From the NCBI GenBank assembly GCA_963806705.1, contig CAWDZE010000007.1, forward strand, positions 25,037 through 89,036: a DNA stretch of 64,000 nt, written 5' to 3'. The notes beneath the pieces were generated by a model. That model ran no database searches. It had not been told where the DNA came from and saw nothing but the letters and a program-made list of their open reading frames with translations. This DNA is from Vicinamibacteria bacterium. Lineage in GTDB: Bacteria; Acidobacteriota; Vicinamibacteria; Vicinamibacterales; JAENWD01. The position numbers were made by a program, and so were the translations under genes. This document shows, piece after piece, positions 655 to 60,146 of this stretch. The first letter of the stretch is position 1, and each line of letters opens with the position of its first letter.

Positions 655-1365
655 ATGGCGTCGATGACCGCAACCGACTTCGCGCATGCGGCCGAGGAGC
701 TCGAGCACCTGTCGGCAGAGCAGATTCTCGCCTGGGCGTCGGAGCACTATCCGCGCGTGTCGTTTGCCACGGGCTTTGGCGCCGAAGGCTGCGTGCTCAT
801 CGACATGGCCGCACGGCACGGCCTGCCGATTGACCTCTTCACGCTCGATACCGGCCTGCTCTTCCCCGAAACCTACACACTGTGGCGCCGTCTCGAGGAG
901 CGCTACGCCGTGACCATTCGCCCGGTACGCCCGGTGCGGACGGTCGGGGAGCAGGCTCTCGAGCACGGCGATCGGCTCTGGGCTCGCGACCCCGATCGCT
1001 GCTGCGCGCTGCGAAAGGTCGCCCCGCTGGCCCAGGCGCTCGCCGGCTACGACGCCTGGATCACCGCGATACGCCGCGACCAGACGGCCACTCGCGCCGC
1101 CGCCCGCCACGTGGAATGGGACACGAAGAACGGGCTGGCGAAGGTCAACCCGCTCCTGCGCTGGTCGTCCGACGACGTGTGGGGATACCTGAAGGCCCAC
1201 GATGTGCCCTACAACGCGCTGTACGAAGAAGGCTATGGCAGCATCGGCTGCGCGCCATGCACCACGCCCGTGCGGCCGGACGAAGACCCCCGCGCCGGCC
1301 GCTGGCGCACGCGCGAAAAGAACGAGTGCGGCCTGCACATCCGCCTCGAACCTGTGAATCCGTGA
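655..1365 (+). CDS. cysH: Adenylyl-sulfate / phosphoadenylyl-sulfate reductase (thioredoxin-dependent), Fe-S cluster (APS-reductase) type
   Basis: ATG at 655 sits 5 nt after the cysA stop. PAPS_reduct-like sequence with Cys-Cys (RCCALRKV), CxxC (GCAPCT) and the C-terminal ECGLH motif. Confidence 0.85.
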   Translation: MASMTATDFAHAAEELEHLSAEQILAWASEHYPRVSFATGFGAEGCVLIDMAARHGLPIDLFTLDTGLLFPETYTLWRRLEERYAVTIRPVRPVRTVGEQALEHGDRLWARDPDRCCALRKVAPLAQALAGYDAWITAIRRDQTATRAAARHVEWDTKNGLAKVNPLLRWSSDDVWGYLKAHDVPYNALYEEGYGSIGCAPCTTPVRPDEDPRAGRWRTREKNECGLHIRLEPVNP

Positions 1366-1415
1366 CCCGTGAACCGTTGACCGTGAACCCGAGAACCCGT
1401 GAACCTGGGTTCGTG
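1351..1415 (+). repeat. Degenerate tandem octamer array (CCGTGAAC)n overlapping the cysH 3' end and the cysH-cysC spacer
   Basis: cctgtgaat ccgtgac ccgtgaac cgttgac cgtgaac ccgagaac ccgtgaac ctgggttcgtgg. Same unit as the array at 23898-23993. Confidence 0.7.
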
Positions 1416-10330: not shown

Positions 10331-10967
10331 GGGGCCAGGCCCCGTTAAGGCGGATTTTCCGTCTTAACGGGGCCTGGCCCCATGCGGAGAAATTCCAACC
10401 AGTTCTGGGGACGCGGGACTGGTCCCGGGTGGAGGCTCGAGAGGCGCGAGGGCCCGACGCTCGACCAGTGCCATTGTTCCGCGCGTTCCACGAGCCCCGC
10501 TCTGATCGGGTTCGACTCGACGTAACTCAGGAGCGTCCGGAGATGGCGCTCATCGCGAACCCGTACGTCGCGGAATCGACCCTGATAGACGTGGCCAGTG
10601 AGCTGGTGCCGAGCGTTGAAGTAGCAGGCATGAACACCTGTCAGCCAGTGGATGTACGCAGAAACCGCGTCGTCTTTGTCGGGCCATAGCACCAGGTGCC
10701 AATGGTTGGGCATCAAGCAATACGCGATGACACGCATCGGAACCCGGCGCCGTGCGCGCTCCATAAGTCCTTGAAAATGCAGGTAGTCGTCCGCTCCGCG
10801 GAACAGCGTCTGTCGGTGCACTCCGCGGTTGAGGACGTGATAGACATACCCGGCTTCAGTGTGTCGTCGTGCTCTCGCCACGCAAAGAGCTCCAGCAACC
10901 TCTGGGCCAGTGTCCAGGGGCCAGGCCCCGTTAAGACGGATTTACAACCTTAACGGGGCCTGGCCCC
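10331..10967 (-). mobile_element. REP-RAYT unit: tyrosine transposase gene bracketed by two REP hairpins
   Basis: Hairpins at 10331-10381 and 10917-10967 share identical 19-nt arms, GGGGCCAGGCCCCGTTAAG / CTTAACGGGGCCTGGCCCC, with 13-nt loops. The RAYT ORF lies between them. Confidence 0.8.
10345..10881 (-). CDS. REP-associated tyrosine transposase (IS200/IS605 Y1 HUH family, RAYT)
   Basis: HUH motif MPNHWHLVL and catalytic Tyr region GHVYQGRF, followed by YVESNPIRAGLV. 178 aa. The 3' end runs into the REP hairpin. Confidence 0.8.
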   Translation of the reverse strand: MARARRHTEAGYVYHVLNRGVHRQTLFRGADDYLHFQGLMERARRRVPMRVIAYCLMPNHWHLVLWPDKDDAVSAYIHWLTGVHACYFNARHQLTGHVYQGRFRDVRVRDERHLRTLLSYVESNPIRAGLVERAEQWHWSSVGPSRLSSLHPGPVPRPQNWLEFLRMGPGPVKTENPP

Positions 10968-15357: not shown

Positions 15358-15422
15358 TCACGAAGGTCACGATGGATACACGAAGGTCACGAAAGCTGTT
15401 GTGGGCTGATCATGGACGCGCA

Positions 15423-16232
15423 TCACAACCCGGCCAGCCAGGGCCACAGGGCGGCCTGAAACGCATCGGGCGCCTCGAGGTTAGCCAGGTGCCCTGCACG
15501 TGGCAGCACCGCGAGGGTCGACTCCGGAAGCGCACTGGCCATCGAGCGGGCCTCGGTGACGGGCGTGATGGCGTCTTCCTCGCCGACGATGACGAGGGCC
15601 GGTATCGCGGCGCGCGCCAGTTGCGGCGTGGCGTCGGGCCTGTCGCGCAGGCGCTGAATCGCACGCGAGACGCCCTCGCCGCTGTTGGACTCGATCATCG
15701 CGCGCACCTTCAGCGCCAGCCCCGGATTGGCGCGCTGTGTCGTCGCGCCAAGCAGCTTGGGCACCATCTCGTCGGCGACACCGGCGACGCCGCCGGACGC
15801 CACCAGGTCCAGCATCTTCTGCCGGCCGTCGCGGGCCTGCGGTGTGTCGGCGCCGCTCTTGGTGTCGGCGAGGACGATGCCTTTCAGCCGCGACGGGTTC
15901 AGCCGCAGGTACGCGAACACCGCATACCCCCCCATCGACAGGCCGCCGAGCACGAAATGCCGCAGGCCCAGGTGGTGGGCCAGGTCGTCGAGGTCGTGCG
16001 CGAAGTCGTCGATGCTCGGCCGGCCGTTGTGGTCCGCGGAGCCGCCAAGTCCCGCCAGGTCGGGCGCGACCACGCGGCACCCATCGGGCACGGACTGAAG
16101 CTGGGGCTGCCACATGTCTGCGCCAAGCGGAAACGCGTGCAACCACACTAGCGTGCGCGGGGCATTGGTGCTTCCCGCATCGAGCCACCGCGTGGTCCGG
16201 CCGCCGATGACGGCGCTCTGCTCGCGTATCAT
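15423..16232 (-). CDS. Alpha/beta hydrolase
   Basis: Nucleophile elbow GLSMGG and C-terminal GHLANLE. The start is either MIREQ at 16232 or the ATG at 16259. Confidence 0.75.
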   Translation of the reverse strand: MIREQSAVIGGRTTRWLDAGSTNAPRTLVWLHAFPLGADMWQPQLQSVPDGCRVVAPDLAGLGGSADHNGRPSIDDFAHDLDDLAHHLGLRHFVLGGLSMGGYAVFAYLRLNPSRLKGIVLADTKSGADTPQARDGRQKMLDLVASGGVAGVADEMVPKLLGATTQRANPGLALKVRAMIESNSGEGVSRAIQRLRDRPDATPQLARAAIPALVIVGEEDAITPVTEARSMASALPESTLAVLPRAGHLANLEAPDAFQAALWPWLAGL

Positions 16233-16322
16233 CCCGCCATTGTATGGGCACGGCCGCAAAGAACGTCATCACTTCGCAACGGCCGTGATAGATGATCGAC
16301 GAGAGTGGAGGATCGCCAACGC

Positions 16323-20566: not shown

Positions 20567-23500
20567 TCACCGCTTCATCACGGCGTCGTCCATGTTCATC
20601 ACCGTGCTCGCGACAATCGACGCGGCGGCCACCTCGGAGGCGGGCAGCGCGCGGTTGCGAGGCGTCTCGCCCGTTGCCAGCAGCCGCCGTGCGGCGCCCG
20701 GGTCCTTCTCGAACGCCGCGCGCTCGTCGGCGTACAGCTTCTCGAGGAGGGCAAGCTCCGAGGGGAGTGGCGTGCGGCTGGTCAGCAGACGAAACGCGAG
20801 CCTGATGCGATCTGAGGCGCTCGTTCCGCCCTCGAGGAGCATGCGCTCCGCAACCTTACGGGCCGCCTCGACGTACTGCGGGTCGTTCAGCAGGACCAGC
20901 GCCTGTAACGGCGTGCTGGTCCGCTGGCGGTTCACCGTGCACACCAGGCGCTCGGCCGCGTCGAAACTGGTCGCCGACGGCGGAGGCGACGAGCGCTTCC
21001 ACACCGTGTAGAGGCTGCGCCGGTGGAGGTCGTCGCCGTGACCCTGGGTGTAGGTGGTCGCGTTCCGTGTCGCCAGAGCTTCCCAGAGGCCCGCCGGTTG
21101 GTACGGGTACACGCTTGGACCGCCGATGGTGGAGACCAGCAGGCCACTGGCCGCCAGCGCGGCGTCGCGAATCTGTTCGGCCGCGAGGCGGTGTGAGGGC
21201 CCGCGCGACAGCCACACGTTGCCCGGGTCGGCATCCCGGCGCGCGGCATCGGCAATCGACGACTGCCGGTACGTCGCCGACATCACCAGCTGCTTCTGAA
21301 ATGCCTTCAAGTCCCAGCCCGACTGCACGAGGCTCGTCGCCAGCCAGTCAAGCAGTGCCGGATGCGACGGCAACTGTCCCTGGCTGCCGAAGTCGGCCAG
21401 CGTCGGCACCAGCCCGCGGCCAAAGAGGAGGGCCCAGTACCGATTCGCGATCACGCGCGAAGTGAGGGGATGCGCCGGGTCGAGCAGCCACCTGGCCAGG
21501 CCCAGGCGGTTGGCGGGCAGGGCTTTCGGAAACGGGCCCATGACGGCGGGCGTGCCCGGCTCGACGCGGTCGGTGGGCGCGTCGTAGGCGCCCCGGGCGA
21601 GCACGAAGGTCGGCCGCGGAGCCGGCAGGTCCCGCATCGTCATCGCTTCGGTGAGCGCGGTGAGCAGGTCGTTCTCACGCTTGCGCAACGCCGTCGCGCG
21701 TGACAGCGTGCGTGCGTACTCCGCGTCGGCGTTGAGCAGGAAGTGCTCGCGCAGCTGTGTCATCTGGCCAGCCGTCGGTGACACCTGGCTGGCGAAGACG
21801 CTCGCCAGTTCGTCGTCGTTGCCGCCGAGCCCCGCCATGTCGAGCGCCGACAGCTGCCGGTCGTACACGCGGACTTCGTCGAAGGCGACGCCCTCGGTCG
21901 TCTCGTCCTGGCGCTTGCCCAGGCGCAACGGCGGCACATCGCCCCAGCTGCCCTTGTTGGTCGTGTAGATGATGCTGCGATGGAGGTTGTCGACCAGCGC
22001 GTGCGTCTGGGCGGGAGCGCCGTCGAGGAACAGCCGCAAGCCGGCGACACGGCTCGATCCGTCGTACGTCAGGCCGATGTGATACCAGGTGCCAGTGACG
22101 AGCTTCGTCGTCGTCTCGATTTCGATCGAGTTGTCGGGGCCGACGTGATGCAGGCCGGCGCTGAGCGTGCCGTCGGCGCGGAGCAGAATCTCGTACCCGC
22201 GGTTGCCGTTCATCACGCCGCCGGAACGTGCGATGAGCGGACCAGACGTGCCGTCCTTGTCGAGGCGGACCCACAGGCTCAGCGAGAACGGCTGGTGGCG
22301 GTCGAAGTACGCGAACTCCTTCCCGATGGTGATGTAGCTGTCGCCCGGCAGCCGCTGCGCGTTGCCGAAGCGCCCGGGCACCGTCTGCGGCCGCTTGTCC
22401 TTGTCGCCGCCGGAGGTGGCCCGCTGGCGCGGCGTCGCGACGTTCTCGTAGGCCAGCACTTCCTCGGGCGGCTTTGGCGGCGCCTTCGGCTCGACTTTGG
22501 GCCGCTCCATGGTCCGTATCGCCCGATCGAACGGCAGATGCCCGATGAGACCGCGCGGCACGGCCCGCGCAGACGGTGGAGCCGCCGATCCGTTGGCGAG
22601 CCACTTCGCGAATCGCCGATCGAAGTCCGGACCCTCGGGCCGCAGCCCGGGCTTGAGCGTGGCCAGCTCGGCTCGAACGCGATCGAGGGCCGCCTGCGTC
22701 TTCGCATCGACGACCATCACTGCCGGGCTCGGCACGCCCGAGTACGGAATCTGCCCGCTCTCGTTGACGCTGTTGAAGAAGCTGAACAGCCGGAAATAGT
22801 CCTTCTGGCTGATCGGGTCGAACTTGTGGTCGTGGCACCGTGCGCACTCGACACTGACGCCGAGCAGCGCACGTCCGAGCGTGGCCACACGGTCGGCGAC
22901 GTACTCGACCCGATACTCCTCCGAGACGATGCCGCCCTCCTGGCTCTGCATGTGGTTGCGATTGAAGCCGGTGGCCAGCCGCTGCTCGTCGGTGGGAGAC
23001 GGCAGCAGGTCGCCCGCCAGCTGCCACGTGATGAACTGGTCGAGCGGCAGGTTGCGGTTGAAGGCGCCAATCACCCAGTCCCGCCACGGCCACATGGTCC
23101 TCATCCCGTCGTCCTGGTAGCCGTGCGAGTCGGCGTACCGCGCGATGTCGAGCCACTCGACGGCCATTCGCTCGCCGTAGGCAGGCGAGGCCAGCAGCCG
23201 ATCGACGACGCGTTCGTAGGCGTCCGGCGATTGATCGGCCACGAATGCGTCGATGTCTGCCAGTGTCGGCGGCAGTCCCGTGAGGTCCATCGAGACGCGT
23301 CGCAGCAGCGTCTCGCGCGGCGCCTCAGGCGACGGGCTCAGCCCGTGCGATTCGAGCGTGGCCAGCACGAAGCGGTCGATCTCGCTGCGGGCCCAGCCGT
23401 CGGTGCGGGTCCTCGGCACCGCCGGCCTCCCCGGCGGGATGAAGGCCCAATGCGGTTTCCACTCGGCGCCTTGCTCGATCCAGCGCACGAGAATCGCTCG

Positions 23501-23869
23501 TTCGAGATCGTTGAGGGCCAGGTGCGAGTCCGCCGCGGGCATCATCACCTTCGGGTCGGTGCTGAGAATGCGCCGGACCAGCTCACTTCGGCGGGTGTCG
23601 CCGGCCACGACGGCGCGCCGGCCCGACGGCAGCTCGCCAAAGGCGACCTCGCGCACATCCAGGCGGAGGCTGGCCTTGCGCGCGCGGTCGTCGGGACCGT
23701 GGCACTTGAAGCACCGATCCGAGATGAGCGGCTTGACGTGGAAGTTGAAGTCGATGACGTCGGGCACGCCGGCGACCGCGATCGCCACCGGTGCTCGACG
23801 CGCGATCACGACCAGCACGATGACCGCGCCGGCCAGAAGGATCGCGATGCCAACTCGGAGAGCCCGCAC
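20567..23869 (-). CDS. PSCyt / DUF1549 / LamG / DUF1553 multidomain protein (1100 aa)
   Basis: N-terminal TM helix, CFKCHGPDDRARKASLRLD, DUF1549 region (WLDIARYADSHGYQDD), ECARCHDHKFDP, a LamG-like insert, and DUF1553 (RLGLARWLLD...NRYWALLFGRG). Confidence 0.85.
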   Translation of the reverse strand: MRALRVGIAILLAGAVIVLVVIARRAPVAIAVAGVPDVIDFNFHVKPLISDRCFKCHGPDDRARKASLRLDVREVAFGELPSGRRAVVAGDTRRSELVRRILSTDPKVMMPAADSHLALNDLERAILVRWIEQGAEWKPHWAFIPPGRPAVPRTRTDGWARSEIDRFVLATLESHGLSPSPEAPRETLLRRVSMDLTGLPPTLADIDAFVADQSPDAYERVVDRLLASPAYGERMAVEWLDIARYADSHGYQDDGMRTMWPWRDWVIGAFNRNLPLDQFITWQLAGDLLPSPTDEQRLATGFNRNHMQSQEGGIVSEEYRVEYVADRVATLGRALLGVSVECARCHDHKFDPISQKDYFRLFSFFNSVNESGQIPYSGVPSPAVMVVDAKTQAALDRVRAELATLKPGLRPEGPDFDRRFAKWLANGSAAPPSARAVPRGLIGHLPFDRAIRTMERPKVEPKAPPKPPEEVLAYENVATPRQRATSGGDKDKRPQTVPGRFGNAQRLPGDSYITIGKEFAYFDRHQPFSLSLWVRLDKDGTSGPLIARSGGVMNGNRGYEILLRADGTLSAGLHHVGPDNSIEIETTTKLVTGTWYHIGLTYDGSSRVAGLRLFLDGAPAQTHALVDNLHRSIIYTTNKGSWGDVPPLRLGKRQDETTEGVAFDEVRVYDRQLSALDMAGLGGNDDELASVFASQVSPTAGQMTQLREHFLLNADAEYARTLSRATALRKRENDLLTALTEAMTMRDLPAPRPTFVLARGAYDAPTDRVEPGTPAVMGPFPKALPANRLGLARWLLDPAHPLTSRVIANRYWALLFGRGLVPTLADFGSQGQLPSHPALLDWLATSLVQSGWDLKAFQKQLVMSATYRQSSIADAARRDADPGNVWLSRGPSHRLAAEQIRDAALAASGLLVSTIGGPSVYPYQPAGLWEALATRNATTYTQGHGDDLHRRSLYTVWKRSSPPPSATSFDAAERLVCTVNRQRTSTPLQALVLLNDPQYVEAARKVAERMLLEGGTSASDRIRLAFRLLTSRTPLPSELALLEKLYADERAAFEKDPGAARRLLATGETPRNRALPASEVAAASIVASTVMNMDDAVMKR

Positions 23870-23890
23870 CTGTCGATTATACGGCGGTCA

Positions 23891-23993
23891 GTGAACCGGT
23901 TCACGGGTTCACGGGTTCACAGGTTCACGGGTTCACAGGTTCACCGGTTCACAGGTTCACGGGTTCACAGGTTCGCGGGTTCACGGGTTCACC
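23891..23993 (-). repeat. Tandem octamer array: 12 x GGTTCACR on the + strand (CCGTGAAC on the transcribed minus strand), preceded by an inverted half-unit
   Basis: 12 units fill 23898-23993 with variation only at positions 6 and 8. GTGAACC at 23891-23897 forms the palindrome GTGAACCGGTTCAC. The array lies 22 nt upstream of the 1100-aa gene start. Confidence 0.9.
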
Positions 23994-24558
23994 AGTGCAG
24001 CTCTAGCGCGCGCAGCGCCCACACCAGAATCAGCCCGGCAACACCGGTCGTGGCGAGGAGGATCGGCAGGGTCGATCGCGCGAGGTGGCGTCGTCTGGCC
24101 GCACCCTCGAGCCAGGCGCCCGCGTTCAGCTCGGCGCGGACGCGCGCGAGCGATTCCCCGTGCTCGCCCCCCACCCGCACGTACCATCGCCGCCATTGTC
24201 CGCGCACGTGCAGAACGAGCCAGCCACGGTCGGCCCACGCGTGGGCGATGTCGGGCCACTGGCCGTGCCAGCGGCGCCACGGATGCTCCAGGGAGACGCC
24301 AGTGACGTCCTGGTGCAGCGCGGTGCGCGACATCGCGACGGCGGCCCACGCCACGCCCACGACAGCCATCGCCTGGAGGGTCACGACCGACCCGAGCGCG
24401 ACAAAGAGAAGCGCCGCATTGCGGTCGCCGCCCGGGTCGACCAGCGTGCCGACGCGCCAGAGCATCACGAACAACCCAACCTCGACGACGGCCGCTCCAA
24501 GCGACGCGAAGAGAACGCCGCGACGAAACGAGGGGGACGCCTGGAGCGTGATGGTCAT
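23989..24558 (-). CDS. Hypothetical membrane protein (189 aa)
   Basis: Intact ORF with 3-4 hydrophobic helices and a W/R-rich soluble segment. The start overlaps the upstream stop. No family recognised. Confidence 0.5.
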   Translation of the reverse strand: MTITLQASPSFRRGVLFASLGAAVVEVGLFVMLWRVGTLVDPGGDRNAALLFVALGSVVTLQAMAVVGVAWAAVAMSRTALHQDVTGVSLEHPWRRWHGQWPDIAHAWADRGWLVLHVRGQWRRWYVRVGGEHGESLARVRAELNAGAWLEGAARRRHLARSTLPILLATTGVAGLILVWALRALELHW

Positions 24559-24689: not shown

Positions 24690-24697
24690 CGAGACGC

Positions 24698-24783
24698 ATT
24701 GACGATTGTCGACTGACGATTGCAGATTACGGAGCACATTCGTGCAATTCCCAATCGTCAACCGACAATCTGCAATCGTCAAT
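24698..24783. repeat. Heptamer (ATTGNNG) arrays arranged as an imperfect palindrome
   Basis: Left arm: ATTGACG ATTGTCG ACTGACG ATTGCAG ATTACGG. The right arm is the complement series (…CCAATCG TCAACCG ACAATCT GCAATCG TCAAT). Confidence 0.8.
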
Positions 24784-24802
24784 ATGCCGGCGGCGCTATG
24801 CT

Positions 24803-25678
24803 GTGGAGGTGGAGGCAGGGCACGCCCAGCGCCGCTCGTTCGACCAGGCCGCCAGCGGACGGCTGTACGCAAGAAGCGGCGCCGAGCGATGGCAGGTCCC
24901 GCCCGATCGCCTTGGCGCCGCCGTCGAGCGCAGCCTCGACTATCGCTTCTCCGGCGCGGCGACAGACGCTGAAGCAGCGGTCTATCTCGAATCGCTGCAC
25001 GTCGACGACCTGGCGCTGGCGTGCGCGTGCATCGACGGTCACGACGGCGCCTGGGAGCACTTCATCCGCGAGCTGCGCCCGCAGCTGTATCAGGCGGCGC
25101 GGACGATCGCGGGTGACGACGGAAGGGAATTGGCCGATTCGCTTTACGGCGAGCTGTTCGGATTCCCCGGAAAGGATGGCGTCAGGCGGTCGCTGCTGGC
25201 GCACTACCACGGGCGCAGCCGTCTGATCACCTGGTTGCGCTCGGTGCTCGTGCAGCGCCACATCGATCGCGTGCGGGCGACCCGGCGGCTCGAGCCGCTC
25301 GACGACGAGGACTCCGGGCGTTCGACGCACGCGGCGACGGCCACGGATCCGGACCCCGAGCGTGACTCTCTGGTCGGCCACGCGCAGCGGGCGCTCGACG
25401 CCGGCATCGACGCGCTCGAGGCAAAGGACCGGCTGCGGCTCCGCCTCTACTACGGCCAGGACATGACGCTTGCGGCCATCGGCCGCGTGCTCGGCGAACA
25501 TGAGGCGACGGTGTCGCGCAAGCTCGACAAAGCCAGGCGCACGCTGCGCGCGGAGGTCGAACGCGCCCTGGCCGCCCAGGGACTCGCGCCTGCCGCTGTC
25601 GCTCGCGCCTTCGAGCTGGCCGCCGACGCACCCGACCTGCAGCTCGACCGGCTGCTGGCACGATCTGAGGATGGCTGA
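24803..25678 (+). CDS. RNA polymerase sigma-70 family (ECF-like) sigma factor
   Basis: C-terminal part of the 1232-aa ORF. Region 2-like WEHFIRELRPQLYQAA and region 4 HTH RLRLYYGQDMTLAAIGRVLGEHEATVSRKLDKAR. The GTG start at 24803 or 24809 is uncertain. Confidence 0.75.
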   Translation: MEVEAGHAQRRSFDQAASGRLYARSGAERWQVPPDRLGAAVERSLDYRFSGAATDAEAAVYLESLHVDDLALACACIDGHDGAWEHFIRELRPQLYQAARTIAGDDGRELADSLYGELFGFPGKDGVRRSLLAHYHGRSRLITWLRSVLVQRHIDRVRATRRLEPLDDEDSGRSTHAATATDPDPERDSLVGHAQRALDAGIDALEAKDRLRLRLYYGQDMTLAAIGRVLGEHEATVSRKLDKARRTLRAEVERALAAQGLAPAAVARAFELAADAPDLQLDRLLARSEDG

Positions 25679-25767
25679 GGCGAAATTGCGTATGTGCAAG
25701 TTTGGCGCACGACGTTCGTTCTTCACGTAGGAGCCTGTAGCCCGTAGTCTGAAGCTGAAGCCCAGTC

Positions 25768-27130
25768 ATGTCCGATTCCTTCGATCGCGCGCTTCGTGCG
25801 GCGGCCAGACGCAGCCGGCCGGCGGGCGTGTGCCCCGACGCGGCAATGCTTGCCTCCTACGCCGACAACGGCCTGTCGGAGGACGAGCGTCGCATCGTCG
25901 AGGCGCACGTGGCCGACTGCGCGACGTGCCTGGAACACATGACGCTGCTCGGCGCGGTGAGCCTCGACCGCGAGGCGCCCGAGCCGTCACGATGGTGGCT
26001 CGCGCAATGGCGCTGGCTGGTGCCGGTCGCCACGGCTGTCCTGGTTGTCGCCGTGTGGATTCGGCTCCCCGAGCAGAATGAACCAGGAAGTTGTCGGCAC
26101 GCGAGCGCCGGCAGCGCAGGCCCAGCCTGTCCCTGCGACCGAACAGGAGCTCGCGGCGCCTGCAAGCCCGCCGCCGGGACGCGACAACGCGAGCGACGCA
26201 GCCGTGGGAAACGCGATGGAGGCGGCAAGGGTCGCTCCAGAACGCACCGGGCAGCTTTCTGACGAGAAGAAGGATCAGCTGATGCCCCTCGAGCGGCGTG
26301 ACAGGGCGAGGCAGAAGGCCGCCAATGCGCCGCCGCCCGCGCCTGTGGCCGCACCGGAAGGCACTGCGCCCGTTCAGGCGAAAGAGGCCGGCGCGGATAA
26401 AGTCCAGGCCTTCGGAGCCGCGACGAGCAAAGTCGCGTCGCCACCCGCTGCGGCTGCGCCGAGGGCAGCTGAAACCGCCAGGGAAGAAATGCAAGTTGCC
26501 GATGCCGGCCGGCGGCGCGAGGCCGATCGGCTCCTGAGCAAGGCGGAGGCGCCGACGCTGGTCGTGTCGGCATCGGCAAAGGAGTCATACCGGGCCGCAG
26601 GCAACCAAATCGAGCTGTCTGAGGACGGCGGCGCCAGATGGCGCGCCGTGTCGTCGGGAGCCCCGGCCACCTTCACCGCCGCCGGGTGCGGAGCGGGCGG
26701 CCCGTGCTGGTTCGGCACGGCCGACGGGCAGCTCTGGCGGCGCACGCCCGACGGGTTCTCGCGTTATGCCCTGCCAGTCCGCCAGCGGGTCATCGCTATT
26801 GCCGTGGAGGACGCCCAAACCGTCGTCGTGACGGTTGACGGCGGCCAGCGCTTCCGTACCTCAAACGGCGGCACCAACTGGGATCCGGATGCCGTAATCC
26901 GCGAAATTCGTAATCGCCAATCTGCAATCTGCAATCGTCCAATTGCAAGATTCCGCCCTTCCTCCGTTCTACCAATAGGCGCCACATACGGCGCCACGGA
27001 GGAGCGAAATGCGACTGTCCATTCCACTCTGGCGCCGCGCGACTGGCGCCTTCCTGGGAGCAGCTGTTCTGGGTCTTCTGGCCTCCGGCGGCACATCGCC
27101 GGCGGTGAAGGCCGTCGAGTCCACCGGTGA
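25768..27130 (+). pseudogene. zf-HC2 anti-sigma factor with Ala/Pro-rich linker and C-terminal BNR/Asp-box repeats, frame disruption near 26075, true 3' end uncertain
   Basis: ORF 25768..26262 carries HVADCATCLEH (HxxxCxxC) and one TM helix, then turns into R/G-rich out-of-frame sequence. ORF 26045..27130 continues with the linker plus SEDGGARW and TSNGGTNW Asp-boxes, and reads through the heptamer repeat into the next gene. Confidence 0.6.
26893..26952 (+). repeat. Heptamer array (NNCAATC)n, complement orientation of GATTGNN
   Basis: cgtaatc cgcgaaatt cgtaatc gccaatc tgcaatc tgcaatc gtccaat tgcaagatt. Confidence 0.75.
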
Positions 27131-28502
27131 AGACGTCGTCGCCGCGACGATCAAGGACCAGACCGAACTTGCGGTCACCGTCTACAACTCGAACATCGCG
27201 CTCGTGCGCGACGTGCGCCAGGTGGCGTTGTCGCAGGGCGTCATCGACTTGCGCTTTCTCGACATCGCCGCGACGGTGAACCCGGCGACCGTGCACTTCC
27301 GCTCGCTCAGCGAGCCATCGCGGCTCGGCATCCTCGAACAGAATTACCAGTTCGACCTGCTGGATCCGCAACGGCTGCTGAAGAAATACATCGGCCGCGA
27401 CGTCACGCTCGTCCGCACGCGAATGGACAACGGGAGCAGCCGCCAGGAAGAGGTCAGCGCGCGCCTGCTGGCATTCAACGACGCGCCGGTGTGGAAGATC
27501 GGCAACGAGATCGTCACCGGCATGCACGCCGACCAGTTCCGCTTTCCCGAGATCCCCGAGAACCTGCACAGCCGGCCCACGCTCGTGTGGAAGGTCGACA
27601 ACAGCGGCCAGCGCCAGCATCGCATCGAGACGTCGTACCTGGCGACGAACATGTCGTGGATGGCCGACTACGTCCTCACCGTCGCGAGAGACGATGCGCG
27701 GGCCGACCTTGACGGATGGGTGACCGTGACCAACACGAGCGGGACGTCCTACAACAACGCGAAGCTGCAGCTGGTCGCCGGCGACCTGCACCGGGTCCAG
27801 AACGGCCAGGCCATGGACGAACTCATGATGGCCAAGGCCGCGCGCGAAGTGGCGGCGGCCCCGCCCCCATTCAATCGCGAGGCGTTCTCGGAGTATCACC
27901 TCTACGCGTTGAACCGGAAGACGACGCTGCTCGAAAACGAGACCAAGCAGATCTCGCTGCTCGGCGGCACCGGCGTGCCGGTGAAGAAACTCTTCGTCGT
28001 CAACGGACAGAACTTCTACTACCGCAACCGTCAGGCGCCGGGCTCGCCGCTCAAGGATCAGGTGCGCGTCTTCTACAAGTTCCGCAACAGCGAGGCGGCC
28101 GGCCTGGGCATGCCGATGCCGGCGGGCACGGTGCGCGTGTATCAGGCGGATTCGAAAGGCGGCATCCAGTTTGCCGGCGAAGATCGCATCGATCACACGC
28201 CGAAAGACGAGGACCTGACGCTCCAGATCGGCACGGCCTTCGACGTCGTCGCCGAACGCAAGCAGGTCGACTGGCAGAAGGTGGCCGAGGGCGTGTACGA
28301 GATGGCGTTCGAGATCACGCTTCGCAACCACAAGGCGACGCCGATCGCCGTCGAGGTCAACGAGCCGATTGCCGCCGACTGGCGGATGCTCAGCTCTACC
28401 CATCAGCACACGAAGACCGATGCCTGGGCGGCCCGGTTCAACGTGGATGTCGCGGCCAACGGCGAAAGCGTGCTGCGGTATCGAGTCCGCGTGAAATGGT
28501 GA
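27009..28502 (+). CDS. DUF4139 domain-containing secreted protein (MuiA/TIGR02231-like)
   Basis: Signal peptide, then a beta-rich 497-aa protein with ...VTVYNSNIALVRD..., ...SYLATNMSWMADY... and ...EYHLYALNRKTTLLENETKQISLL... as seen in DUF4140/DUF4139 proteins. Confidence 0.65.
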   Translation: MRLSIPLWRRATGAFLGAAVLGLLASGGTSPAVKAVESTGEDVVAATIKDQTELAVTVYNSNIALVRDVRQVALSQGVIDLRFLDIAATVNPATVHFRSLSEPSRLGILEQNYQFDLLDPQRLLKKYIGRDVTLVRTRMDNGSSRQEEVSARLLAFNDAPVWKIGNEIVTGMHADQFRFPEIPENLHSRPTLVWKVDNSGQRQHRIETSYLATNMSWMADYVLTVARDDARADLDGWVTVTNTSGTSYNNAKLQLVAGDLHRVQNGQAMDELMMAKAAREVAAAPPPFNREAFSEYHLYALNRKTTLLENETKQISLLGGTGVPVKKLFVVNGQNFYYRNRQAPGSPLKDQVRVFYKFRNSEAAGLGMPMPAGTVRVYQADSKGGIQFAGEDRIDHTPKDEDLTLQIGTAFDVVAERKQVDWQKVAEGVYEMAFEITLRNHKATPIAVEVNEPIAADWRMLSSTHQHTKTDAWAARFNVDVAANGESVLRYRVRVKW

Positions 28503-28507
28503 AGACA

Positions 28508-28585
28508 GGTTGGTCGGGTTGATCGGGTTGGGTCGGGTTGGGTCGGGTTGGGCCGGGTTGGGTCAGGTTGGAGTTGGGTTGACTG
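28508..28585 (+). repeat. Tandem about 10-mer array (GGGTTGGGTC)n
   Basis: ggttggtcg ggttgatcg ggttgggtcg ggttgggtcg ggttgggccg ggttgggtca ggttggagtt gggttgactgg. It starts 6 nt after the DUF4139 stop. Confidence 0.8.
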
Positions 28586-29915: not shown

Positions 29916-29958
29916 GCCGGTTGCAGGTTGCAGGTTGCCGGTTGACGGTTGTACAACC
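29916..29958 (+). repeat. Heptamer array (GNNGGTT)n ending in a 12-nt perfect palindrome
   Basis: gccggtt gcaggtt gcaggtt gccggtt gacggtt gtacaacc. GGTTGTACAACC is self-complementary. Confidence 0.8.
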
Positions 29959-31850: not shown

Positions 31851-31938
31851 TACCGGGGCCAGGCCCCGTTAAGGAATTGTTAAGCTGGAGGAACGTGTCT
31901 GCTCTTAACAATTCCTTAACGGGGCCTGGCCCCGGTAC
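31850..31938. repeat. Extended REP palindrome: 35-bp perfect inverted repeat with 19-nt loop, containing the 19-nt core of the RAYT-flanking hairpins
   Basis: GTACCGGGGCCAGGCCCCGTTAAGGAATTGTTAAG (31850-31884) pairs with CTTAACAATTCCTTAACGGGGCCTGGCCCCGGTAC (31904-31938). Confidence 0.9.
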
Positions 31939-51190: not shown

Positions 51191-51423
51191 ATGTGCGCTG
51201 CGATGCCCTGTGGCTCGCCGGTCGGGCCGGCCGAGGATGTCGACGAGACCGTCGATGACGAGGAAACCACCGAGGTGAACGAGGACGACGAGGACGAGGA
51301 CGAGGACGAGGACGAAGAAGAGAGAAAGACGAGGACGATGACGAGGAAAAAGACGAGGACGATGACGAGGAAAAAGACGGTGACGAGGACGTCGACGACG
51401 AGGACGAGCCGCCGGCGCGCTAG
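51191..51423 (+). other. Possible hyper-acidic D/E-rich micro-ORF (needs a frame change at about 51322); may be non-coding low-complexity DNA
   Basis: The ATG frame reads ...DVDETVDDEETTEVNEDDEDEDEDEDEEE. A second frame continues KDEDDDEEKDEDDDEEKDGDEDVDDEDEPPAR* to the TAG at 51421. GAC/GAG/GAA trinucleotide repeats. Confidence 0.2.
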
Positions 51424-51477
51424 CGCGCCTCGACTCTTCAGCCTCAGCCGGCGCCGGCTGGGCTGGGCGCTCGGACC

Positions 51478-52137
51478 ATGACGTGGATTCACGACCGATC
51501 GCTGACGCTGGTCATGATCGCGCTCTTCGCGGCCTGCGGGTGGGGCCAGCTCCTCACGGGGTGGGCGGAGTACAACCAGTCGCAGGCCGAGCACGGGCAG
51601 GCGGCCATCGCGCTGCTGTCATACCTGCGGGTGGGACATCCCTGGGAGGCGCTGTTCGAAAACTGGGAGAGCGAGTTCCTGCAGATGACCGCGTTTGTCA
51701 CGCTGACGGCGGTGCTCTACCAGAAGGGGTCGCCCGAGTCGCGCCGGCCGGGCGTGCGCGAGCTGGTGGACGCGGACCCGCGCGACTTCGCGCACCTCGA
51801 GGGGGTCCCGTGGCCCGTGAAGCGCGGCGGCTGGGTGCTGCGTGTCTACGAGCACTCCCTTGGGATCGCCTTGTTCCTGCTGTTCGTCGTGTCGTGGGCC
51901 GGGCACCTGGTGGGCGGGTGGCTCGCCTACGCCGGCGATCAGGCCTCGCACGGACAGCCCGGGCCCTCGCTGACCGGGTTCCTGGGATCGAGCCGGTTCT
52001 GGTTCGAGTCCTTCCAGAACTGGCAGAGCGAGTTCCTGTCGGTGGGCGTCATGGTGTGGCTGGCCGTCTACCTGCGGCAGCGCGGGTCTCCGGAGTCCAA
52101 GCCCGTCCATGCGGCGCACGACCAGACCGGGCGCTGA
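51478..52137 (+). CDS. DUF6766-like membrane protein with internal duplication
   Basis: Two halves each contain a TM helix plus ENWESEFLQM / QNWQSEFLSV and YQKGSPES / LRQRGSPES. Confidence 0.55.
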   Translation: MTWIHDRSLTLVMIALFAACGWGQLLTGWAEYNQSQAEHGQAAIALLSYLRVGHPWEALFENWESEFLQMTAFVTLTAVLYQKGSPESRRPGVRELVDADPRDFAHLEGVPWPVKRGGWVLRVYEHSLGIALFLLFVVSWAGHLVGGWLAYAGDQASHGQPGPSLTGFLGSSRFWFESFQNWQSEFLSVGVMVWLAVYLRQRGSPESKPVHAAHDQTGR

Positions 52138-55911: not shown

Positions 55912-57868
55912 TTATTCTTGCCATCTCAACCCCTGTAAGTTGCTCATCAACAAGGCCGTGTGATTCGTGCTAGTTGCCCCACACCAGGCTGTCGGCGTTG
56001 CCCCACACCAGGCTGTCTGGCGTTGCCCCAGACCAGGCTGTCGGGCGTTGCCCCACACCAGGCTGTCGGCATTGCCCCACACCAGGCTGTCGGCATTGCC
56101 CCACACCAGGCTGTCGGCGTTGCCCCAGACCAGGCTGTCGGCGTTGCCCCACACCAGGCTGTCGGCGTTGCCCCACACCAGGCTGTCGGCGTTGCCCCAC
56201 ACCAGGCTGTCGGCGTTGCCCCAGACCAGGCTGTCGGCGTTGCCCCACACCAGGCTGTCGGCGTTGCCCCACACCAGGCTGTCGGCGTTGCCCCACACCA
56301 GGCTGTCGGCGTTGCCCCACACCAGGCTGTCGGCGTTGCCCCACACCAGGCTGTCGGCGTTGCCCCACACCAGGCTGTCGGCGTTGCCCCACACCAATGC
56401 GCCGCCCCATACCAGGCTCTCGGAACTGCCCCAAACTAGTGCGTTTGCTAGAACCAGGGTGCCGACGTCTGTTGCCCAAACTTGCAGTCGCAACTCCAGA
56501 GTTCACGATGGTTTCAGCCGCCACTCGAGTTGAGATCTGTGCAGGTCCGCTCTTGGCCAGTTGCACGGCCGCGGCCGCGTTCAGGCTCCCGGCGCCGGCG
56601 CAGGTCAATCCCTCTTCCTTCATGAACGTGCTGCTCATCTGCAGCGCGATCCGCACCTGCAGCGGGCTCAGCTTCGGGTTGGCTTCCAGCGCCAGCGCCA
56701 CCACGCCGCTCACCACGGCCGCCGCCTGGCTCGTCCCCGACATCTCGAACACCCCGTGCTGCCCGTTGCCCGAAATCAGCTTCTCCGGGAACCGCTTCGC
56801 CAGCGTGCTGCCCGGCGCGTAGAGCGAGTGCAGCCGCCGCCCCGGCGCCGCGATGTCCGGCTTCACCTGCTGATCGAACAGCGTCGGCCCGCAGGAGCTG
56901 AAGTCCGCGATGGTGTCGTCGCTCCGCCGTGCCGTCCCGTTGTCGTCAATCGCCCCCACCGTCAGCGCGTAGCGGCGAGTTGCCCGGCGACGTGATCGTG
57001 CGCAGCGCCCGCCGCCCGTCCTCGGTCTTGCCGTAGTTGCCCGCCGAGACCACCACCACCAGCCCGGCCTCGATACGCGCGCTTGACGGCCTGGCACAGC
57101 GGGTCGTCCACGTAGCTCTCAAACACCGGCCGGCCCAGCGACAGGTTGATCACCCGCAGGCCGAACTTCTCCTTGTGCTCGATTGCGAAGTCGATCGCCC
57201 TGATGACGTCGCTCGTCAGGCCCGAGCCGTCCGCCCCCAGCACCTTCAGGCTCACCAGCGACGCGTCCGGCGCCACCCCCTTGAACTCCGCGCTGTTGCC
57301 GGCGACCAGGCCCGCGATGTGCGTGCCGTGCCCCAGCTCGTCTTCGCCCGTGCCGTTCGACTTGGTGAAGTCCACGCTCGCCAGGAACTTCCTCGCCAGC
57401 GCCCTGTGTCTGGAGTAGCCGCTGTCGGCCAGCGCGACGACGATGCCGCGCCCGGTGACCGACCCCACGCCCGGCAGCGACCCGGCCCATGCCTGGTCGG
57501 CGCCGATGGCCTGGTTGGTCACGTCCGTCATCGACCGCACGAGCGTGTCGCCCGACAGGTGTCCGACGCCGCAGATCCGCGGCCAGCGCCCGCAGCTGCG
57601 CGCCGCTGGCCCGCAGCACCGCGCCGGTCTTCAGCCACTTGGCAATCAAAGCCCCGGTACGCGCCGCCACGGCTTTCACCGTCGGCGGGTCGGCCTGGAA
57701 GATCACGTCGCGCCCGGCGCCGGAGGCCACGGCGTCGGCGACGTCTTTCGACAGCTTCGCGCGCGGAGCGGCGATGGCCTCGGATGCGACCAGCAATGCC
57801 AGCAGCCCCAGCAGGAGCGCAAGCAACCCCAGCTCGCCAAAAGCCTTCCGTCGACCGCGCCTCGTCAT
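55912..57868 (-). pseudogene. Secreted S8 (subtilisin-family) peptidase with C-terminal octapeptide-repeat domain, multiple frame disruptions
   Basis: Signal peptide, then catalytic D (VALADSGY), H (HGTHIAG) and S (SGTSQAAAVVSG). Frame changes near 57570, 57075, 56975, 56480 and inside repeat units at about 56040 and 56015. GGAGG precedes the ATG at 57868. Confidence 0.8.
55973..56394 (-). repeat. About 17 near-identical 24-bp tandem repeats encoding ADSLVWGN, plus about 4 degenerate units up to about 56490
   Basis: The + strand unit is GTTGCCCCACACCAGGCTGTCGGC. Variants are cac/cag and gtt/att only. Units 2 and 3 (55997-56046) are 25 nt each. Confidence 0.95.
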
Positions 57869-58203: not shown

Positions 58204-58260
58204 ATTGAATCTGCGTAATTTCGCCCTCAATCTGCAATCTGCAATCTGCAATCTGCAATT
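58204..58260 (+). repeat. Heptamer array with a (TGCAATC)n core
   Basis: ctcaatc tgcaatc tgcaatc tgcaatc tgcaatt at 58226-58260, preceded by degenerate units (attgaat ctgcgtaatt). Confidence 0.85.
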
Positions 58261-58411: not shown

Positions 58412-60122
58412 ATGTTTCGCCGGGTTGCAGCCGTCGCCCTTGTGCTCGTTCTGGCCGGAATTGCCGTGTTTTTCTACAGCCGGACGGCCGTCGCGCCGGG
58501 CCGCAGGCCCGCGATGGCCCCGCCAGGGGCGAAGCCGGGCGGGACCCTCACGGCGACGCTCCGCGCGGAGCCGGCGACGTTCAACCGCTTCGTGTCCAAC
58601 GGCTTTCCCACCCACCTGGTGAGCCTGCTCACCGACGGCCGCCTGGTGCGGGTGAACCCGGAGACCGATCGGCCCGAGCCGTGGCTGGCCGAAAAGGTCA
58701 GCCGCACGGACACCGCCATCGACATCACGCTGCGGCCGGGCCTCCGCTTTTCCGACGGCACGCCTGCTCACGGCAGACGACGTGGTGTGGTCGCTGAAGG
58801 CGGCGTACGCGACGGCGCAGGGCGCGGTGGGAGACGGGCTGCGGCTCGACGGCGCGGAGATCCAGGCGCGCGCGGAGTCCCCGACGCGCGTCGTGCTGAC
58901 GCTGCCGGGCCCGTGGGCGACGGCGGACCGGCTGCTCGAGGCGCTGCCCATCTACCCGCGCGCGGTCGTCGAGCCGGCGCTCTCGTCGAACACGTTTGCC
59001 GCGGCGTGCTCGACCACGGCGCCCTGCCCGGGCCTGGGGCCGTTTGCCGTCGCGCGGTACGAGGCGGGCCAGCGCGTGGTCCTCGAGCGCAACCCGCACT
59101 ACTGGCGGACCGACGCGGCCGGCGCGAAGCTGCCGTACCTCGACAGCCTCGTGCTGGAGATCGTCCCGGACCAGAACGCGGAGCTGGTGCGGCTGACCGG
59201 CGGCCAGGCCGACGTGCTGCAGTCGGAGCTGCGGTCGGAAGACGTCCGCACGCTGCGCCCCGAGGCGGACGCGGGCAGAGTCGTCCTCACCGATGTCGGC
59301 CCCGGCCTCGATCGCCACATGCTGTGGTTCAACCTGGGGCCCGCGCCAATCGATCCGGCCAAGGCGTTCCTGCGGCAGGACGCGTTCCGCCAGGCCGTGT
59401 CGCTCGCCGTCGATCGCACCGGCTTTGCCAACACGGTGTTCCTCGGCGCGGCCACGGCGTCATCCGAGCCCGTGTCGGAGGCCAACAAGGCGTGGACCGT
59501 CGTCGATCTGCCGCGGCCCACCTACAATCCCGCGCAGGCCGCGACGCTGCTCGACGGCATCGCGCTGCGCGATCGGAACAACGACGGCATCCGCGAGGAC
59601 GCCTCGGGCCGTCCCGTGCGCTTCGCGGTGCTGGTGCAGTCGGGCATCACCGCGGCGCAGACGGCGATGGGCTTCGTGCGCGACGCGCTCGGCAACGTCG
59701 GCGTCGGCATGGACATCGTCGCGCTGGACATGGGCACGGTGATGGGCCAGTGGAAGCAGGGGCAGTACGACGCGGTGTTCCAGTACATCCAGGTGAGCGA
59801 CACCGATCCGGCCAGCAGCATGGACTTCTGGCTGTCGCGCGGCAGCTTCCACCTGTGGCATCCGGGGCAGGCCACGCCGGCGACGCCGTGGGAGGCGGAG
59901 ATCGATCGGCGCATGCTGCTGGTGGCATCCACGACGGACCAGGCCGCGCGCGTCAGGGAATTCGCGGAGGTGCAGCGGCTGATGCTGACGCACAACCCGG
60001 CGATCTGGTTCGCGGCGCCGCGCGTGTTCGTCGCCACGCGCCCGCGTGTCGGCGGGGTCGTGCCGCGGCTGACGCGGCCGCAGGTGCTGTGGAGGGCGGA
60101 CGAGCTCTACATCGTCAATTGA
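58412..60122 (+). pseudogene. ABC transporter substrate-binding protein (family 5, peptide/nickel type), orphan, frame disruption near 58765
   Basis: N-terminal TM anchor, then GGTLTATLRAEPATFN. RFSDGTP-g-LTADDVVWSLKAAY shows a 1-nt insertion. Also ERNPHYW. No permease or ATPase genes are adjacent. Confidence 0.75.
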
Positions 60123-60146
60123 CGATTGCAGATTGACGATTACGCC
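60111..60146 (+). repeat. Heptamer array (TGACGAT/TGCAGAT) with central palindrome CGTCAATTGACG, spanning both convergent stop codons
   Basis: atcgtcaat tgacgat tgcagat tgacgat tacgcc. The SBP stop is at 60120-60122 and the DUF3574 stop at 60140-60142. Confidence 0.8.

Follow-up and report, generated by a model that had tools for sequence, protein, structure and literature searches.

Arrays of very short units repeated head-to-tail at many intergenic sites are known from several groups of bacteria. In Xanthomonas and Nostoc, the heptameric simple sequence repeat (SSR) families GGGAATC and GGGGA(C/T)T are dispersed through non-coding DNA near the ends of open reading frames (ORFs) in arrays of 2 to ~26 units, some of them in inverted pairs, which vary in length among close relatives, adjoin genes of all functional classes and have no demonstrated function (Rehm et al. 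2015, PMC4692102). In that study heptameric SSRs were over-represented, longer repeat runs were commoner in large, GC-rich genomes of non-pathogens, and the preferred unit length was hypothesized, with reference to Mrazek et al. 2007, to reflect the stretch of DNA held by the polymerase. The TAACTGA repeats of marine Beggiatoaceae, some Cyanobacteria and Bacteroidetes occupy >100 intergenic sites per genome, mostly in 2-6 copies and in longer arrays in some lineages; they are overwhelmingly direct and lie a few nucleotides upstream of start codons, and a translational role has been suggested for them; their arrays, too, differ in length among close relatives, and no function has been demonstrated (MacGregor 2015, PMC4679880). 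Here we examine an array of twelve octamers at positions 23898-23993 of a 64,000-nucleotide stretch of acidobacterial DNA (the window), located upstream of a gene cluster encoding PSCyt/DUF1553 and DUF1501 proteins. We conclude that this array is probably a recent, lineage-specific and slippage-driven expansion within a dispersed family of long-unit microsatellites built on GTGAACCY (GAACC core, 7-9 bp). Heptamers of the short tandemly repeated repetitive (STRR) type were reportedly described from cyanobacteria by Mazel et al. in 1990, and the present array is likewise iterated, sited in non-coding DNA, dispersed in the genome and variable in copy number among relatives, as expected of a long-unit SSR or STRR-like sequence. 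Full-text searches of the open-access literature returned no description of such repeats in Acidobacteria.

On the + strand the array reads as 12 contiguous 8-bp units of the GGTTCACN type, GGTTCAC[G/A/C], joined head-to-tail without spacers, and comprises five copies of GGTTCACG, four of GGTTCACA, two of GGTTCACC and one of GGTTCGCG, the last carrying an A>G change at unit position 6 (window position 23970). On the minus strand, which is the sense strand for both flanking genes, it is written (GTGAACCN)n or (CCGTGAAC)n. A single inverted half-unit, GTGAACC, stands at the gene-proximal end (23891-23897, minus strand) and forms with the adjoining unit a perfect 14-bp palindrome, GTGAACCGGTTCAC. 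A preliminary description of this DNA had listed the twelve spacer-less octamers, their variation at the last base, the single A>G unit and the palindrome created by the half-unit, all of which were recovered by direct reading and by the unit tally; its bounds alone need adjusting, as 23891 is the start of the half-unit and the array proper begins at 23898. Tandem Repeats Finder (TRF) assigned the array a score of 148, with period 8, 11.9 copies, 88% matches and no indels. As a chance control, arrays of period 5-12 with >=3 copies were counted in 30 dinucleotide-preserving shuffles of the window, which contained a mean of 0.27 arrays each and reached a top score of 49. The array is therefore real and far above chance. 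Tandem arrays are prone to mis-sizing in assemblies, but it is hardly conceivable that the array is an artefact of assembly or sequencing, or a low-complexity run that arose by chance, given the distance from the best shuffle and the occurrence of the same octamer family, including at orthologous positions, in independent JGI, ENA and NCBI assemblies made with differing technologies. Clustered regularly interspaced short palindromic repeat (CRISPR) arrays consist of 23-50-nt repeats with unique spacers between them; the units here are 8 bp long and the spacers number zero.

The history of the array can be read from close relatives. Syntenic loci were located through exact-protein look-ups of close homologues and are designated L001 (95% amino acid and 93% nucleotide identity to the window), L002 (89%), L169 (86%) and L170 (88%). 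In the window the gap between the stop codon of an upstream 189-aa gene and the -10 box of the cluster is occupied by 12 units and the inverted half-unit. The same gap in L001 contains 2 units, a 60-bp hairpin with GTAG that resembles repetitive extragenic palindromic (REP) sequences, and a further 2.5 units, and here the half-unit is degenerate (GGGTGAT) and the palindrome has decayed to GTGAACCGGGTGAT. The array is absent from L002, from L169, where unrelated GC-rich hairpins are found, and from L170, where the gap holds a palindrome, GTAGCGCAGG...CCTGCGCTAC, that resembles a REP doublet forming a hairpin (REPIN). The REP-like GTAG hairpins lie at 9890-9950 of L001, as a mid-array insertion, and at 2850-2910 of L170, as the REPIN-like palindrome; for a further locus, P0006 (81% identity), gene calls alone give an orthologous gap of 102 bp. 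The octamer count at the locus is thus 12 in the window versus 2 + 2.5 in the 95% relative and 0 in the 86-89% relatives, and conservation of the array and of its palindrome fails already in the closest relative (95% protein identity). Such non-conservation makes a conserved operator, leader or essential promoter element unlikely and fits a slippage-prone tract in a permissive gap. Comparison of copy number between relatives had been set beforehand as a possible refutation by invariance; copy number was not invariant, and the instability foreseen in the preliminary description was borne out. The same contrast holds beyond this gap: between the window and L001 every array in a shared gap differs in copy number, whereas the repeat-free gaps are collinear and nearly indel-free.

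What is conserved at the locus lies just downstream of the array. The element CCGTATAAT-N6-GTG is present in five of five loci (the window and the four relatives) and contains TATAAT, a probable -10 box (23876-23881, minus strand), followed after 6 nt by the GTG start codon (23867-23869, minus strand) of the 1100-aa PSCyt/DUF1549/DUF1553 gene. From this GTG onward the five orthologues differ by synonymous or conservative codons (CGG/AGG/CGA/CGC, GCT/GCC, GGC/GGT); an in-frame TGA lies 21 nt 5' of it, with no other start codon in that interval. The GTG start lacks a Shine-Dalgarno sequence, and a sigma-70 consensus scan returned zero -35/-10 pairs. These features point to a promoter of the -10-only type and to an mRNA that is probably leaderless from the consensus -10 box, a reading supported by a second case of the same architecture, TACAAT-N6-ATG at ~16230-16250 (near 16232), which is conserved with L001; together the two cases suggest that leaderless mRNAs with -10-only promoters are in use in this acidobacterium. 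Because the -10 box and the leaderless GTG lie downstream of it, the array would form the -35/upstream region of the cluster and the 3' flank of the 189-aa gene, not a 5' leader. Its earlier placement in the leader of the PSCyt/DUF1553 cluster is not supported, given the conserved TATAAT-N6-GTG on its 3' side. The companion suggestion of a structured leader fares no better: the predicted RNA fold of the array and half-unit is only slightly more stable than those of shuffles (z = -2.5), an Rfam search gave sub-threshold or spurious miRNA models only, the array stands 5' of the putative -10 box, and it is unconserved in the orthologues. The conserved signal at this locus is the putative -10 box with its probably leaderless GTG, and what looked like a bespoke leader is a generic unstable repeat.

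The position of the array next to this promoter core raises the question of whether it acts as a contingency-type tract, whose changes in octamer number would set the level of PSCyt/DUF1553-DUF1501 expression, or turn it on and off, through upstream DNA or read-through RNA. We regard this as a minor possibility. Copy number does differ among close relatives, the array borders directly on the promoter core, and a GTGAAC (a 3/6 match to TTGACA) lies exactly 17 bp from TATAAT in the window and in L001 alike; elsewhere, intergenic heptamer SSRs tune expression (PMC12721329). The proximal end of the array is fixed, though, so that unit changes leave the -35/-10 spacing unaffected, and with a probably leaderless mRNA the tract falls outside the 5' untranslated region (UTR) of this promoter; moreover, the array-less orthologues retain both the -10 box and the start. 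Phase-variation tracts are placed between the -35 and -10 elements, in the 5' UTR or within an ORF, and this array lies 5' of the putative -10 box and the start. Of the earlier proposal of a slippage-prone phase-variation tract, the length instability stands and the switch role is unsupported, the array probably being outside promoter spacing, UTR and reading frame. A parallel is the (ATCTTTC)n tract of Haemophilus influenzae hmw1A (PMC12721329), where heptamer number does affect expression and which shares with the array a 7-8-bp unit, a long uninterrupted run, a variable copy number and a place directly upstream of a gene whose product is exported or surface-associated. The hmw repeats, however, belong to the 5' UTR of the transcript, in which they adopt a defined hairpin that is processed by RNase III, whereas the present array would lie outside the transcript of its own promoter and is one of dozens beside unrelated genes. 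Sister arrays are found beside housekeeping cysH/cysC genes and in convergent gaps, in either orientation, a distribution that was judged unfavourable to phase variation for the Xanthomonas and Nostoc repeats (PMC4692102).

The wider distribution of these repeats was examined in Vicinamibacteria genomes, where we found about one 7-8-bp tandem array per 3-5 kb. A survey of 431 kb from Vicinamibacteria counted 138 arrays with periods of 5-12, a set that includes ~50 found by the pattern scan described below; 51 had period 7, 64 had period 8 and 23 had other periods. The scan covered one genome per GTDB species and required four exact GTGAACCN units. It returned at least 86 loci, and approximately half of the matches listed were in Vicinamibacteria or gp6 acidobacterial metagenome-assembled genomes (MAGs). 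At least 24 arrays were present in 20 fetched loci of MAG MFD00962.bin.2.121 and at least 7 in MAG SMAG_U3917, and further Vicinamibacteria MAGs, several in number, have such arrays as well. Beyond Acidobacteria the octamer was sporadic among the matches listed, mostly as homogeneous single arrays of up to 47 units in Streptomyces, Rhodobacter, Flavobacteriaceae, Synergistales, Methanosarcina and others (loci L005-L078); this recurrence across phyla is uncalibrated against a control octamer, and no conclusion is drawn from it. The window itself holds a second member of the family, a more degenerate (GAACCYGT) array of ~7 units at 1348-1405 (+ strand) that lies in sense orientation in the PAPS-reductase/APS-kinase gap and ends in an inverted half-unit, GAACCTGGGTTC; locus L020, from MAG MFD00962.bin.2.121, carries an orthologue of different length. 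In Vicinamibacteria the units drift in period (GTGAACC, 7 bp; GTGAACCY, 8 bp; GAACCYGAC or GTGAACCCC, 9 bp) around an invariant GAACC core. Free variation is confined to one position, which on the GTGAACC strand is the C of a CpG, and in one MAG the two alternatives are nearly balanced (GAACCCGT 59 versus GAACCTGT 57). At array edges there are variants, GTGCAC and GTTAAC, in which the core has become perfectly palindromic. Together these patterns hint at CpG transitions and quasi-palindrome correction. The unit also seems to come in genome-specific flavours, a suggestive pattern that is confounded by locus ascertainment.

Family members are strongly confined in position. Of 55 arrays, 51 are intergenic, and most fill their gap, ending 0-20 bp from a stop or start codon and often overlapping it. 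The gaps comprise 25 co-directional, 12 convergent and 6 divergent cases; in co-directional gaps 14 arrays are GTGAACC-sense and 11 antisense, and a hand count of unpaired arrays only gave ~9 versus 4. The position of arrays relative to coding DNA is thus highly non-random, whereas their orientation relative to genes is not demonstrably so. The preliminary description had named random orientation and position relative to genes, beside invariant copy number, as refuting evidence; the near-random orientation agrees with the first-named half of this. Neighbouring genes include cysH/cysC, transporters, binding proteins and hypothetical genes, with no preference for surface, adhesin or restriction-modification functions. 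A dedicated binding site or switch for the PSCyt cluster, as first proposed, is accordingly unsupported, as the array is unconserved and its unit recurs at dozens of unrelated gaps, convergent ones included. The family resembles the Xanthomonas and Nostoc heptamers in its dispersed head-to-tail arrays, its non-coding sites near ORF ends and its length variation among close relatives, and differs from them in having an 8-bp unit (drifting 7-9) that is not G-rich and an acidobacterial host. With TAACTGA it shares a single short tandem unit and a patchy occurrence across distant phyla, but GAACC arrays take either orientation and adjoin stop codons as often as start codons.

The near-random orientation also makes it less likely that the family as a whole acts at the RNA level or on specific promoters. 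In principle the arrays could act as RNA, forming hairpins with an inverted partner that serve as terminators, insulators, RNase III targets or 3'-end stabilisers; in the window, the last unit and the half-unit would then make up a small hairpin at the end of the 189-aa transcript. It is in keeping with such a role that many arrays directly follow stop codons, that paired arrays fold as very stable hairpins (z = -6.5 for the DNA fold of L045) and that the fold of the main array with its half-unit is slightly more stable than in shuffles. We consider this very unlikely. At this locus there is one 7-nt inverted unit with no U-tract after it, and the terminator scan was empty at the array, its single terminator-like site lying elsewhere (24477-24494); more than half of the arrays have no inverted partner, their orientation is independent of transcription, and Rfam searches, including those of the paired arrays, returned zero family matches. 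The idea that the arrays are Rho rut sites (C>G in one orientation only) was rejected on the near-random orientation, and G-quadruplex formation and intrinsic curvature were a poor fit to the 8-bp GGTTCACN unit, the former being inapplicable to an octamer that is not G-rich.

Protein binding offers another functional account, in which the arrays would be iterated sites for an abundant lineage-specific protein that polymerises on 7-8-bp units and serves silencing, insulation, nucleoid organisation or segregation. MetJ metboxes of 8 bp and the 7-bp heptads of omega (pSM19035) are operators of ribbon-helix-helix proteins, in which 2-10 units at a few specific, conserved sites are read by a known protein. 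The array is similar to these operators in its contiguous, spacer-less 7-8-bp units at a promoter, direct or inverted, and its 7-8-bp pitch may recall that of known spiral binders. In many loci and genomes the GAACC..GT core is invariant and a single position is free; this constancy, the strict polarity of paired arrays and the AAYC-like core shared by units in the window (CAATCTG, CAACCTG, GAACCYGT, AACCCGACCC) also speak for a reader protein. Even so, we hold this explanation to be quite unlikely. GAACC arrays, unlike the MetJ and omega operators, number dozens, are unconserved at orthologous sites and occur in convergent gaps; no candidate protein came to light, though no search aimed at one was made, paired arrays have centres of differing length and sequence, and the conservation of the core is partly an ascertainment artefact. 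Unrelated units (GGCTACA, CGGCACG, AAGGCACG and others) behave alike in the same genomes, which points to a generic mutational process. For example, a GGCTACA array runs to 4.6 units in L001 and to 9.6 in L170, and the window has a stretch that matches the one in L001, while L169 has CGGCACG x7.9 instead; the array-bearing gaps of L002, L169 and L170 are too diverged for blastn anchoring and were compared by TRF listing. Several look-alikes, taken only as leads, were dropped because the palindrome is unconserved in the 95% relative, the spacings mismatch and the pair centres vary, namely the CRP-type GTGA-N6-TCAC, the Cheo/LexA GAAC-N4-GTTC, the alphaproteobacterial LexA GTTC-N7-GTTC and the parS half-site GTGAAAC.

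A slippage-driven microsatellite family remains our preferred explanation for the array. Slipped-strand mispairing during replication or repair, which is known to favour units of ~7-8 bp where genomes are large and GC-rich, would create and resize such arrays, and selection would confine them to non-coding DNA, with growth halting at gene boundaries. An 8-bp unit would shift the frame of a coding sequence, and the TGA within GTGAACC would end any ORF entering in the sense direction within three units. It is because of this TGA in sense-oriented GTGAACC units that the stop codon of the 189-aa gene (23989-23991, minus strand) lies in the array, inside the last + strand unit, which is the first array unit in the sense of the gene. 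At this locus the array would be tolerated filler between that stop and the promoter core of a leaderless PSCyt/DUF1553 operon. Any effects on expression, whether through altered -35/upstream DNA, read-through RNA of the 189-aa gene or the C-terminus of the 189-aa protein, may be by-products, and a regulatory effect of the array is probably incidental. Both slippage and the lack of a dedicated function here would follow from the non-conservation of the array taken together with the behaviour of the family.

The polarity of paired arrays is a regularity that this explanation does not account for. Where two arrays share one gap they always read (GGTTCACN)n-short centre-(NGTGAACC)n and never the reverse, as seen at the Vicinamibacteria loci L016, L017, L022, L029, L034, L045, L046, L051, L066, L071 and L079-L081. 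In the 60 bp next to each of 52 arrays, read along the (GAACC)n strand, GGTTC was counted 100 times 5' of the array versus 8 times 3' of it, and two or more inverted units are found on the 5' side of 23/52 arrays and on the 3' side of 0/52. The centres are 6-20 bp long and unconserved, often of the form GGTTCG...CGAACC. A pair of inverted heptamer sub-arrays in the window, (ATTGNNG)n-centre-(CAATNNN)n at 24690-24790, is of CAATCTG type, lies where the 189-aa gene and a sigma-70 region 4 gene diverge and shows the equivalent polarity; a spurious miRNA hairpin match to this segment reflects its palindrome. The main array belongs to the minority type, with its lone inverted unit on the 3' side. 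No mention of strict inverted-pair polarity was found in the literature consulted on the Xanthomonas and Nostoc families. A single palindromic seed, fold-back templating or selection by a binding protein could each possibly produce the rule.

Several points weigh against slippage as a complete account. Local slippage leaves the (GGTTCAC)n...(GTGAACC)n polarity of pairs unaccounted for; independent local slippage alone does not provide for recurrence of the same unit at dozens of loci; and slippage likewise leaves unexplained the near-invariant GAACC and following GT with one free C/T. Recurrence, core invariance and polarity hint that the arrays were seeded by a common element, evolve in concert or are under selection. 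In addition, the family loci were ascertained by the pattern itself, which biases the unit statistics, and the gene calls on which positions depend came from a crude caller based on third-position GC content (GC3), which recovered 20/21 JGI calls on L001, all on the correct strand. The GAACC-core arrays could alternatively form a genome-wide polar cis-element system, either as landing arrays for a dedicated Vicinamibacteria protein with a 7-8-bp pitch or as products of an outward repeat-adding or hairpin-templated activity from a central break. Such a system would account for the recurrence of the unit, for the invariant GAACC/GT with its free pyrimidine and for the absolute polarity of pairs, but we judge it an improbable alternative. 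Pair polarity is nevertheless a clean, testable anomaly that could show the origin of the family or a protein that reads it.

With these data the Vicinamibacteria, which are abundant soil Acidobacteria, join Nostoc, Xanthomonas and Beggiatoaceae as organisms whose intergenic DNA is rich in 7-8-bp arrays. The arrays are ready strain-typing markers of the variable number of tandem repeats (VNTR) kind. They are also a likely cause of breaks in MAG assemblies and of mis-called gene ends, the latter because arrays supply stop codons.

The window holds several other arrays. A CAATCTG-type heptamer array upstream of the DUF4139 gene (26918-26948, + strand) has one unit fewer than in L001, a decamer array of GGTTGGGTCG (28508-28581, + strand) has ~7.5 units versus ~4.5 in L001, and a (GCMGGTT) array (29916-29951, + strand) has ~5 units versus ~3.9. 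An array of period 8-9 and TCACGAAGG / CATCGTG type at 15358-15393 differs from L001 in both length and units. A perfect (CAATCTG) array of 4.6 units lies at 58228-58259 (+ strand), and heptamers of (ATTGACG) type, which belong to the CAATCTG-type group, occupy 60118-60141 (+ strand), where they fill the 17-bp gap between the convergent SBP_bac_5 and DUF3574 genes and overlap both stop codons. The G-rich decamer at 28508-28581, also written (GGGTTGGGTC)n, has a G3-tract spacing compatible with a G-quadruplex.

The gene context given in the preliminary description, with a PSCyt/DUF1553 gene, a 189-aa gene and an array filling the gap between them, was confirmed and refined by the finding that the array supplies the 189-aa stop. 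The 1100-aa ORF (20567-23869, minus strand) encodes the domains PSCyt1, PSCyt2/DUF1549, Laminin_G_3 and PSD1/DUF1553 and is followed downstream by a DUF1501 gene and then a PSCyt1-LRR gene. The gap between its GTG (23869) and the 189-aa ORF is 119 bp, of which the array and half-unit occupy ~98 bp. The 189-aa protein has hydrophobic, membrane-segment-like stretches at its N- and C-terminus, had no family match in Pfam and NCBIfam searches and is probably not a DNA binder; its C-terminus reads ...ALELHW* in the window versus ...ALNP* in L001. Soil metagenomes are the source of the closest homologues of the 1100-aa protein (<=95% identity). The cluster has a planctomycete-like look, but the host is acidobacterial (Vicinamibacteria-like) and not a planctomycete, because the best named homologues of this protein belong to Vicinamibacterales, Vicinamibacteraceae and Luteitalea and the GC content of the window is ~68% (0.64-0.74 across most of it). 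An exact-sequence look-up of the DUF1501 protein of the window gave no match, and when metagenomes were scanned with the PSCyt protein (N-terminal 400 aa) only paralogues appeared, at <=72% identity and of no use for synteny. A divergent sigma-70 region 4 gene, a zf-HC2 anti-sigma-like gene (named via the annotation of L001) and a DUF4139 gene (24803-26900 and 27009-28502) keep their synteny with the 189-aa gene and the PSCyt cluster throughout the close relatives and may constitute a regulatory module for the cluster.

REP and REPIN elements, which are mobilised by RAYT proteins (REP-associated tyrosine transposases, of the Y1 type), resemble the GAACC arrays in being dispersed, strictly intergenic, often arranged as inverted hairpin pairs and variable among relatives; REPs, in contrast, are single imperfect palindromes of 20-40 nt, whereas GAACC arrays are direct tandem repeats. 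A RAYT/REP origin of the octamer array was rejected, as the Y1_Tnp gene in the window is flanked by a different hairpin family. This gene (IS200-like, probably a RAYT; 10345-10881, minus strand) has a 51-nt hairpin, GGGGCCAGGCCCCGTTAAG...CTTAACGGGGCCTGGCCCC, on both sides (10331-10967), and the motif occurs 6 times in the window versus 0.19 expected, a classic RAYT-plus-REPIN layout. A third REPIN-like copy, with a longer AT-rich inner stem (TTAAGGAATTGTTAAG...CTTAACAATTCCTTAA), lies at 31862-31926 in the gap between the COX15 and peptidase M2 genes and is conserved in L001.

Repeats are also present within coding sequence of the window. A 24-bp repeat at 55973-56396 (17.6 copies, 97% perfect) encodes an 8-residue, ADSLVWGN-like repeat in the C-terminal part of a subtilase-family ORF (55970-57097, minus strand), and a (GACGAG)n / 24-bp acidic (Asp/Glu-rich) repeat at 51279-51407 lies at the junction of ORFs 51191-51481 and 51478-52137. 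Between these repeats, the segment 53511-55907 has a low GC content (0.53 versus ~0.68 for the window), coincides with a 798-aa ORF for an HD-GYP/GAF/MASE9 signalling protein and may have been acquired horizontally.

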